From Candidatus Asbonarchaeum danakilense (GTDB lineage: Archaea; Nanohalarchaeota; Nanosalinia; Nanosalinales; Nanoanaerosalinaceae): a stretch of 20,413 nucleotides of DNA. A model generated the notes under the pieces. That model was not told where the DNA came from and made no database searches. It saw nothing but the letters and a program-made list of their open reading frames with translations. Made by a program: the position numbers and the translations under genes. How positions within the stretch are numbered: position 1 is the first letter of the stretch; the number at the start of each line of letters is the position of its first letter. Of the stretch, positions 3,683 to 15,620 are shown one piece after another. The stretch lies in assembly GCA_034190465.1 (NCBI GenBank), contig JAXINV010000001.1, positions 19,836 through 40,248 on the forward strand, read 5' to 3'.

Positions 3683-3914
3683 CGCCTGCAGTTACGCAGG
3701 CGGCGCGATCTGTTGGGGTGTCCACAGGACACCCCTTCCCGCGTATCAATACTCATTAACGCTCCGAGTTAACTCGAGTCGACTGAAATCTTCGATTTCA
3801 GGACTCCGCGGAGGAATTGGGCCCCGACGACTACGAAACCGCTACGCGGTTTCTAGAGCAGAAATTCTCTACGAGAATTTCAAGATTTGAACGTCGAAAA
3901 CCTTGCAGGTTTTC
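3683..3914. repeat. Cluster of short perfect inverted repeats (palindromic hairpins)
   Basis: Hairpins at 3683-3702 (CGCCTGC/GCAGGCG), 3715-3735 (GGGGTGTCC-aca-GGACACCCC), 3765-3776 (CGAGTTAACTCG), 3783-3801, 3835-3853, 3861-3881 and 3896-3914. Confidence 0.85.
3816..3892 (-). repeat. Degenerate, interrupted direct copy of the tRNA-Lys 3' end (att-like)
   Basis: ATTGGGCCCCGACG (3816-3829) versus tRNA-end ATTGGGCCCGACG (3941-3953), and GATTTGAAC (3884-3892) versus the T-loop GATTTGAAC (3955-3963). The two pieces are separated by two hairpins. Confidence 0.6.
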
Positions 3915-3940: not shown

Positions 3941-3942
3941 AT

Positions 3943-4221
3943 TGGGCCCGACGGGATTTGAACCCGCGACTATCGGGTATCTTCCCAGACCGACGAATCG
4001 GCCTGTCCCGTTCAACTGTAATCATCGGGCACGAAGATCAGAGATCTTCTCAAACCGTCTTCCCGCAGCAGCGGAAAGCCGGTGGCCCTCATCGCTTCTA
4101 ACCGGGAGTCCCAGTACAGCATGTCGTCCAGTCGGTCAGCCGTGCTGACCGGCTCCGCATGCCGCCTGGGCGTAGCAGGCGGTTAAAAGCCCGATGCTCT
4201 GCCAGACTGAGCTACGGGCCC
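3943..4221 (-). tRNA. tRNA-Lys(UUU) with a 205-nt intron at position 37/38 (exons 4221-4184 and 3978-3943)
   Basis: The joined exons read GGGCCCG TA GCTC AGTCTGGCA GAGC A TCGGG CTTTTA^A CCCGA TAGTC GCGGG TTCAAAT CCCGT CGGGCCC A. All four stems pair, the anticodon is TTT, and CCA is not encoded. Confidence 0.95.
3979..4183 (-). ncRNA. Bulge-helix-bulge tRNA intron, 205 nt, multi-hairpin
   Basis: The central helix is CUUU(32-35)/GAAG, with 3-nt bulges UA^A and AU^A and an outer helix CCG/UGG. Internal hairpins include CAGGCCGA-UUCG-UCGGUCUG. Confidence 0.85.
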
Positions 4222-4408
4222 AATGTAGTCCGTAGCGAACGGTGCCCGTGACTGATATCGCCTCCATCGGGCAGGAGGCAGCGGCGCGTCAGACGCCGTG
4301 GGCATGGAAGCGTACGGCGTCCACATTTATTAATGCTTCTCGCAGCCCGGGGCCGGCGCGGTGGACGGAGGCGCAACCGATTTAACCCGGCGAGGCGAAT
4401 TTCACCGC

Positions 4409-15347: not shown

Positions 15348-15620
15348 ATGAGTTTCAAGGAAGAACTGCAGAGTGCAGCGGAGGATGACCGGCTTGTGGT
15401 CGGTACCAGTGAGACGATCAAGCAGATGGACGACCTTGAACGTGTGATCGTCGCTGGCAACGCCCCGGCTGAGCTCGCTGACAGGGTCCGGGACGCAGCA
15501 GACGGTACCGATCTTGATGTCGAGGTCTTCGACGGCACGAACCAGGAGCTCGGTTCGCTGTGCCGGAAGCCGTTCGCTGCCTCCACGGTAGGTATTAAAA
15601 AAGTGACTGGCATAAAGTGA
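15348..15620 (+). CDS. rpl30e: 50S ribosomal protein L30e
   Basis: LVVGTSETIK, VIVAGNAP and FDGTNQELGSLCRKPF. It sits in the canonical position between rpoA'' and nusA. Confidence 0.92.
   Translation: MSFKEELQSAAEDDRLVVGTSETIKQMDDLERVIVAGNAPAELADRVRDAADGTDLDVEVFDGTNQELGSLCRKPFAASTVGIKKVTGIK

Follow-up and report, generated by a model that had tools for sequence, protein, structure and literature searches.

A box C/D guide RNA directs 2'-O-methylation to the nucleotide that faces its fifth position upstream of box D. The consensus of box C is RUGAUGA and that of box D is CUGA, and archaeal C/D particles normally use two kink-turn motifs; a kink-turn comprises a canonical stem, a loop of 3 nucleotides (nt), tandem sheared G.A pairs and a non-canonical stem. 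Some guides reside in tRNA introns, as in the precursor of tRNA-Trp (pre-tRNA-Trp), where the intron forms a complete C/D RNA and its boxes are arranged as C-D'-C'-D. In this work we analyzed the tRNA-Lys(UUU) gene carried by the reverse strand of a 20,413-nt stretch of the genome of Candidatus Asbonarchaeum danakilense (assembly GCA_034190465.1, contig JAXINV010000001.1, positions 19,836 to 40,248; hereafter the window). From sequence comparison we propose, with a probability of about 0.7, that the intron of this gene is a padded box C/D-type guide with one kink-turn, which would target the tRNA that carries it for 2'-O-methylation of U34.

The intron of pre-tRNA-Trp has been reported to guide the formation of Cm34 and Um39 (PMC4090602, PMC7994747); a review of 2014 described this case as 'a unique example' (PMC4090602), and alternating conformers were reported for the precursor (PMC7994747). 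In Nanoarchaeum equitans, a stable and abundant C/D-like RNA is encoded in the 66-nt intron that elongator tRNA-Met carries, and the same report presents a C/D RNA whose box D lies upstream of its box C (Randau 2012, PMC3491384). In haloarchaea, Cm34 of pre-tRNA-Met is assigned to the stand-alone box C/D RNA sR-tMet (Joardar 2011, cited in PMC4033218).

The comparison with these systems that follows relies on the parts of the cited reports drawn on here. As in pre-tRNA-Trp(CCA) of Haloferax volcanii, and in sR50 of Pyrococcus, the Lys guide lies in the 37/38 intron of the targeted tRNA, and within its antisense to the anticodon loop the fifth nucleotide upstream of a D-type box is the one that faces nt 34; in the Trp system, and likewise in our proposal for Lys, methylation must precede or alternate with the formation of the bulge-helix-bulge (BHB) that is recognized for splicing. 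The Trp system uses L7Ae, Nop5 and fibrillarin, and the genome of the window encodes all three, with the gene of L7Ae at C22:5551-5826, that of Nop5 at C1:6568-7194 and that of fibrillarin at C1:7736-8341. In contrast, the Trp intron has two guides (for C34 and U39), whereas the Lys intron has a single guide and a single motif, in which D comes before C and which a stem closes, and it also differs in its host, tRNA-Lys(UUU), in its uridine target and in its boxes, AUGA and GAUGAUU. The tRNA-Met intron of Nanoarchaeum shares with the Lys intron a DPANN host and the combination of a box D, a variant box C and a GC hairpin; the host tRNA is Met and not Lys, the part of the report drawn on here names neither a target nor a self-targeting rule, and the likeness is one of description. 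sR-tMet, which reportedly acts on the intron-containing precursor, resembles our reading of the Lys intron in that a guide directs the 2'-O-methylation of the wobble position of a tRNA that decodes a split codon box but, unlike the Lys guide, it is encoded outside the tRNA gene. A literature search, mainly of open-access sources, returned no title or abstract on this design, or on guides in Lys or Glu introns, in Nanohaloarchaeota or DPANN archaea. The modules described below would extend intron-encoded guides beyond tRNA-Trp and one tRNA-Met of Nanoarchaeum to Lys(UUU), Glu(UUC), Met(CAU) and Ser(CGA) and would add uridine as a target.

The core of the Lys intron consists of the following elements, given in the order in which they are transcribed:

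4103..4106, reverse strand: 5' strand of the outer (P) stem, CCCG, whose G doubles as the first guide nucleotide; kept in the sister species
4093..4103, reverse strand: guide GGUUAGAAGCG, with a unique best register in the scan described below and the same letters in the sister species
4089..4092, reverse strand: D-like box AUGA (CUGA in most relatives), from the comparison of modules and the covariance-model alignment
4085..4088, reverse strand: 5' strand, GGGC, of the C stem of the putative kink-turn, which abuts the boxes; the equivalent stem covaries in 27 short modules
4027..4030, reverse strand: 3' strand of the C stem, GCCC, paired with 4085-4088 in the model alignment
4020..4026, reverse strand: C-like box GAUGAUU, whose last U co-varies with the A of AUGA
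4011..4019, reverse strand: spacer ACAGUUGAA, facing the guide; kept in the sister species, with no target found
4007..4010, reverse strand: 3' strand of the P stem, CGGG, from the fold and the sister species

When the guide is numbered upstream from the D-like box, its positions 2-11 form 10 base pairs (bp), one of them G-U, with nt 31-40 of the tRNA, and position 5 faces the wobble nucleotide U34. The first intron nucleotides, ACC, repeat nt 38-40, so that in the precursor the guide duplex has 11 bp. An antisense of at least about 10 nt that ends next to a D box and holds its target, U34, at position 5 is thus present. In the relatives, the shared Lys module likewise comprises about 10 nt complementary to the anticodon loop, the box CUGA, a stem with a variable insert, and GAUGAU(C); the pairing equivalent to the P stem, read by eye, has different sequences in other Lys introns. 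The sequence-only reading had noticed two box-C-like CGAUGA motifs (4094-4089 and 4027-4022). Both are real, but only the second is the C-like box; from the layout of the module and the register, the first combines the end of the guide with AUGA, the box on the D side of the motif, and is no second box C.

The same module is found in three other introns of this genome (G000), and in each of them the antisense fits the anticodon loop of its own tRNA:

G000:C8:24742-25043 (L036): Met(CAU) intron module, target C34
C31:6425-6635 (L037): Glu(UUC) intron module, target U34
C10:16265-16453 (L038): Ser(CGA) intron module, target C34

To compare these modules we used a sample of 76 distinct intron-bearing tRNAs, among them Met and Glu genes fetched from relatives, in which a simple detector recognized 46 modules, and the 12 nt upstream of each D-like box were slid over the whole mature tRNA. 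In 45 of the 46 modules the unique best register placed position 5 on nt 34; these belong to Lys (12), Met (24), Glu (7) and Ser(CGA) (1), and the sole exception was a doubtful Thr call. With a relaxed detector that allowed one mismatch in the stem, the set comprised 47 modules (Met 26, Lys 13, Glu 7 and Ser 1). Here, guide positions 3-8 were paired with nt 32-37 in all 282 of 282 cells (258 Watson-Crick, 24 G-U and no mismatches), that is, the variation of the guide is limited to changes that preserve pairing. The guides pair over 6.0-9.1 nt with their own tRNA, versus 2.0-5.0 nt with other tRNA species. Two further modules, L005 (Lys) and L079 (Glu), were recognized by eye and are outside these counts.

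The boxes and the stem between them were analyzed in an alignment of 27 short modules from which the window was left out. The five pairs that abut the boxes are 98.5% paired, and every one of them changes on both sides; the covariation score was 0.979 versus 0.187 in shuffles (0 of 500 shuffles reached the observed value), and partners slid out of register gave at most 0.233. A covariance model (R1) of guide, NUGA, stem and (G/A)AUGA, built from these 27 modules, matched the window at 4104-4018 on the reverse strand with 27.2 bits (E 5.6e-5); this was the best match in the whole genome, and the runner-up scored 14.5 bits. The two boxes also change together: among the 47 modules, the first nucleotide of the D box and the letters that follow GAUGA were combined as C with UC in 29, A with UU in 15, C with CG in 2 and C with UA in 1, so that AUGA is accompanied by GAUGAUU in 15 of 15 cases. 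A loose pattern for the box pair gave 65 matches over the whole genome versus 9-13 in shuffles, many of them in coding sequence, and a pattern following the strict rule gave 28 versus 3-10; two of the matches were looked at and both look coding. Given the many coding matches, the box pair by itself is unspecific, whereas the covariance model is specific.

These comparisons bear on the proposal of the sequence-only reading that the intron is either an L7Ae-binding guide or a new class of RNA. The pair of D-like and C-like boxes, the covarying stem and the antisense argue for the first part. The second is not supported; the core is probably that of a guide of a known type, and the conspicuous stem-loops are unconserved even in the sister species. 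Structural conservation among relatives, which that reading had proposed to look for, is found in the core and the covarying stem but not in the peripheral hairpins. The intron matches no Rfam family at gathering scores, and a search at a permissive threshold gave nothing significant.

Other introns of this genome, those in Gln(UUG), Arg(UCU), Thr(CGU), Ser(GGA) and Arg(CCG), were found to have no complete module. The Gln(UUG) intron (G000:C3:28347-28558, L040) carries a 9-nt antisense to nt 33-41 in the loop of the hairpin CAGCAG-GUCCGAAAGA-CUGCUG, with U34 opposite the fifth nucleotide before CUGC and no C-like box; it may be a degenerate or a different guide. In the window's family, the Met(CAU) introns (L036, L045-L052) have two more conserved elements downstream of the C-like box, namely a second, CUGAGAC-like box and CCAACAAAC; these suggest a second guide or another function.

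Records named Aenigmatarchaeota also carry the Lys guide and the boxes, in short introns; that of L139, which was read to the 3' splice site, has about 38 nt. A pattern scan of a genome collection yielded 38 stretches, 13 of them in archaeal tRNA-Lys introns and 25 by chance, mostly in bacterial records; the pattern allowed only 4-34 nt before the guide and is hence blind to long forms such as that of the window. A metagenome scan with the 18-nt stretch of guide and D box returned 9 contigs, none in a tRNA context, and all were taken as chance matches. One record titled as a Colwellia metagenome-assembled genome (L105) holds an archaeal-type tRNA-Lys gene with a guide intron; this contig is probably mis-binned, because it matches L014 letter for letter in the exon end, the first intron nucleotides, the guide and the D box.

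The tRNA-Lys gene itself has the following parts:

4184..4221, reverse strand: 5' exon of tRNA-Lys(UUU), nt 1-37 (38 nt), with the anticodon UUU at 4187-4185; ARAGORN with introns allowed, spliced cloverleaf
3979..4183, reverse strand: intron of 205 nt at the canonical position 37/38; ARAGORN with introns allowed, corrected boundaries
3979..3984, reverse strand: GAAG of the BHB central helix, which pairs with C32-U35, and the AU of the 3' bulge; sequence and constrained fold
3943..3978, reverse strand: 3' exon, nt 38-73; boundary analysis and cloverleaf

With introns allowed, ARAGORN called tRNA-Lys(ttt) at C12 c[23777,24057], which corresponds to window positions 3942-4222, with an intron of 205 nt, and the exons joined by script give a standard 76-nt tRNA-Lys(UUU) cloverleaf. 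In its default mode ARAGORN made no call in the window, nor did any Rfam family match there at gathering scores. The central helix of the BHB is formed by C32-U35 (CUUU) and GAAG at 3984-3981 (4 bp), and the two bulges of 3 nt, U36 A37^A and A U^A38, place the cleavage sites at 37/38. Helix h is the anticodon stem, of 5 bp; the outer helix h' has only 2-3 bp (C2-G, C3-G and perhaps G4.U) and adjoins a multi-branch loop. A BHB intron at 37/38 between intact exons, as had been read from the letters, is thereby borne out by the 4-bp helix, the two bulges and the spliced cloverleaf. The genome (1.2 Mb, 81 contigs, 92% complete) encodes the splicing proteins EndA and RtcB; neither a second Lys gene nor a tRNA-Lys(CUU) was found in this assembly, and a Lys candidate at a contig end was rejected as an Arg(UCG)-like gene. 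A protein-coding reading of the opposite strand was rejected: three open reading frames over or flanking the tRNA-Lys gene had no Pfam match at E up to 1. Elsewhere in the window, at 15351-15611 (G000:C12:35186-35446), there is a second, weaker match to the L7Ae family (37.3 bits) in a frame of 91 amino acids.

From the observations, namely the anatomy of the sequence, the way it is conserved and covaries, the register of the target and the protein genes found, we infer the following order of events, in which the guide may act in cis within the precursor or in trans after excision. AUGA and GAUGAUU, held by the GGGC/GCCC stem, would form a kink-turn that is predicted to bind L7Ae, and on which Nop5 and fibrillarin would assemble. 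The 10-11 nt upstream of the D-like box would pair with nt 31-40 of tRNA-Lys(UUU), or, in the precursor, with nt 31-37 and the intron ACC that mimics nt 38-40, and the 2'-OH of U34, facing the fifth guide nucleotide, would be methylated. The RNA would then refold into the cloverleaf and the BHB, from which EndA and RtcB would take out the intron. In the unconstrained minimum-energy fold of the precursor the guide is paired in cis with U33-A37 and the first four intron nucleotides, and the fold constrained to the cloverleaf and the BHB lies 7.3 kcal/mol higher (-127.9 versus -135.2). Because of this minimum fold and the size of the gap, we propose two alternating conformers, one competent for methylation and the other for splicing.

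The intron is strongly structured: on the reverse strand it folds with -92.8 kcal/mol (z -3.84 versus shuffles), and the opposite strand is slightly weaker (-82.2 kcal/mol, z -3.45); for the whole pre-tRNA the z-score was -5.69. Its length was compared in 60 relatives of the same order that were searched with the tRNA-Lys gene; the 3' boundary given by ARAGORN was wrong in three Lys genes (L002, L015 and L021), and intron boundaries were corrected afterwards. Of the 28 distinct Lys(UUU) genes obtained, 4 have no intron; the other 24 carry one of 26-214 nt, in each case at 37/38. With its 205 nt the intron had been called exceptionally long; it is long, but it is only the second longest of these 24 and therefore no outlier in the lineage, and this genome has longer introns at the canonical position in Met(CAU) (225 nt) and Thr(CGU) (about 254-265 nt), in addition to those of Arg(UCU) (149 nt), Gln(UUG) (137 nt) and Glu(UUC) (133 nt). 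Most of the stems listed from the letters, namely CGGUCAGC/GCUGACCG, CUUUCCGC/GCGGGAAG, GAAGAUC/GAUCUUC, CCCG/CGGG and CAGGCCGA-UUCG-UCGGUCUG, are found in the predicted folds, whereas CCGCCUG/CAGGCGG has a competing alternative pairing.

Outside the core, the intron is occupied by hairpins:

4133..4182, reverse strand: hairpins A (4182-4162) and B (core 4151-4133), located after the 5' splice site and before the guide; from folds, not conserved
4054..4083, reverse strand: hairpin C (ACCGGCUUUCCGC/GCGGGAAGACGGU), a variable insert inside the C stem; from folds, replaced in the sister species
4033..4049, reverse strand: hairpin D (GAAGAUC-UCU-GAUCUUC), lying just 5' of the C-like box; belongs to a family of hairpins spread over the genome
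3986..4005, reverse strand: hairpin E (CAGGCCGA-UUCG-UCGGUCUG); from folds, with a hairpin of different sequence at the same place in the sister species

In the sister species (G001) the Lys intron has 190 nt, and the only segments shared by the two introns are, at the 5' end, ACCGCCU, then CCCGGUUAGAAGCGAUGAG, which spans the guide and the D box, and CGAUGAUUACAGUU..ACGGGAC, with the C box, the spacer and the P stem, and, at the 3' end, GGGAAGAU. The guide and the boxes are identical letter for letter, and in place of hairpins A, B, C and E there are different hairpins. Judging from these sequences, the four hairpins are lineage-specific padding; since short Lys introns carry the core without padding and the hairpins of the sister species are replaced, the conspicuous stem-loops appear to be dispensable additions. 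Met introns of other genera have near-identical copies of hairpin D ahead of the C-like box, and this recurrent GAAGAYC hairpin beside the C-like box may be a second protein-binding site, which a particle with one guide is otherwise without.

Hairpin D belongs to a family, GAARAYC...GRUYUUC, that recurs at many genomic sites, among them places behind other tRNA genes and within several tRNA introns. Downstream of the tRNA-Lys gene (window 3882-3914, reverse strand; core 3914-3896) lies the hairpin GAAAACC-UGCAA-GGUUUUC, flanked by GA...GA and followed by GACGUUCAAAUC, a copy of a T-arm-like tail. Another recurrent structured insert, of about 60-100 nt where it was fully read, opens with a palindromic hairpin, AACUGCCGCGGCAGUU, after which come two hairpins rich in GC; it is common to introns of different tRNAs (L036, L037, L002, L003, L004 and L005; Met, Glu and Lys), where it lies inside the C stem or upstream of the guide, and it may be mobile.

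Several observations weigh against the proposal that the Lys intron is a box C/D-type guide. The order of the boxes is D-like then C-like, and AUGA and GAUGAUU depart from CUGA and RUGAUGA; the intron lacks the canonical layout with box C near the 5' end and box D near the 3' end, there is no D'-type box beyond the spacer that lies behind the C-like box, and neither a second box pair (C'/D') nor a second kink-turn was recognized in it. Only one antisense to the host tRNA was found, versus the Trp-type pair of guides for nt 34 and nt 39. In the canonical register the C stem abuts the boxes and leaves no unpaired bulge of 3 nt. If instead GAU is taken as the loop and the second GA enters the sheared pairs, a layout is obtained that would fit a kink-turn and in which the co-varying positions face each other: in the 27 modules there is a closing C-G pair (24 of 27), then U.U, and then A-U (8), C-G (2) or C.C (17), so that under this alternative register most relatives carry a C.C opposition. 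The Rfam C/D families scored below threshold (15.3 and 9.4 bits versus gathering scores of 75 and 40), the guide duplex of Ser(CGA) has 6 bp only, and the module counts are not independent events, because the modules are homologous by common descent. The independent signal is that four tRNA species have four matched guides, with wobble-only drift within each.

The antisense could also serve without methylation, masking the anticodon loop while a kink-turn bound by L7Ae organizes the precursor, and so set the time at which the BHB forms and the intron is cut, or bar the precursor from translation. That the antisense:anticodon duplex is part of the minimum-energy fold, 7.3 kcal/mol below the BHB and cloverleaf fold, and that a single kink-turn is seen, which is atypical for an active archaeal C/D particle, speak for such a folding or timing device. 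Masking, however, does not require that the 3' end of the antisense be fixed one nucleotide from the NUGA box, which in 45 of 46 modules, across four tRNA species, brings nt 34 to position 5, and the genes of fibrillarin and Nop5 are kept; we consider this alternative unlikely. It is rather improbable that most of the intron is neutral padding, made of inserted hairpin cassettes around a C/D-like core that is a decaying and functionless relic in this genome. Such a view would account for the dispersal of the hairpin D family, including the copy directly behind the tRNA-Lys gene, for the wholly different peripheral hairpins of the sister species and for a D box that reads AUGA instead of CUGA; but the core remained identical in the sister species while its surroundings changed, the association of AUGA with GAUGAUU in all 15 cases indicates coordinated change and not decay, and the window obtains a good score (27.2 bits) from the covariance model, which was derived from other modules.

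Two further explanations place the role of the intron elsewhere. Archaeal circular tRNA introns and circular C/D RNAs are known, according to the parts of the reports drawn on here (PMC7994747, PMC3491384), and the excised intron might persist as a stable circle that acts in trans on a target other than tRNA-Lys, for instance with the spacer UUACAGUUGAAC as a second guide; this is a form of the functional circle suggested by the sequence-only reading. The spacer is indeed kept in the sister species, but it is not conserved in other Lys introns, it lacks a D'-type box after it, and the assembly, from which the rRNA genes appear to be missing (a search with a 16S primer motif found no rRNA gene), holds no complementary site except the opposite strand of the intron itself; we regard such a trans-acting RNA as very improbable. 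The antisense might instead be an internal guide for intron mobility that pairs across an intron-less 37/38 site and directs reverse splicing, in agreement with the fact that it spans the exon junction of the mature tRNA (nt 31-40) and that related modules occur in four different tRNA genes. This idea leaves the flanking C/D-type boxes and the fixed N+5 register unexplained, and Rfam finds no self-splicing intron; to our knowledge, BHB introns have no ribozyme or reverse-splicing machinery, and we give this explanation hardly any credence.

Returning to the self-targeting guide, the distribution of the proteins that modify wobble uridines was compared with that of the modules. Neither Elp3 (TIGR01211) nor PF01171, the PP-loop family that holds thiolases of the NcsA/TtuA type, was found in the genome of the window, and none of its family's 10 genomes, whose completeness is 80-93%, gave a match above the cut-off. 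Elp3 is present in 41 of 41 and 7 of 8 genomes of the two larger sister families, and PF01171 in 37 of 41 and 8 of 8 (E up to 0.001). Within the window's family, the Glu(UUC) guide occurs in 8 of the 8 genomes from which a Glu gene was retrieved, and it occurs in 0 of 22 loci from other families; the Lys guide was found in 6 of 6, 6 of 6 and 2 of 17 fetched Lys genes in the three families. The Lys guide is thus present beyond the window's family, and hence it also co-occurs with Elp3. Um34 and s2Um34 occur in archaeal tRNAs, according to the part of the source drawn on here (PMC7668247). As a tentative suggestion, and one that we hold to be less likely than not, guided Um34 could have replaced in this family the near-universal protein pathway for xm5s2U34 that ensures the accurate decoding of split codon boxes.

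At the level of annotation, genes such as this one are missed by the standard scans for tRNAs (default ARAGORN) and by Rfam, and in consequence the genomes appear to be without tRNA-Lys. A guide role of the intron, if true, would explain why its core is conserved while the remainder drifts, and it would give the tRNA introns of reduced archaeal genomes a concrete function as built-in guides of wobble methylation. If guided methylation did take the place of the protein pathway, each tRNA gene would carry the specificity determinant of its own essential wobble modification, which would explain the retention of these introns.

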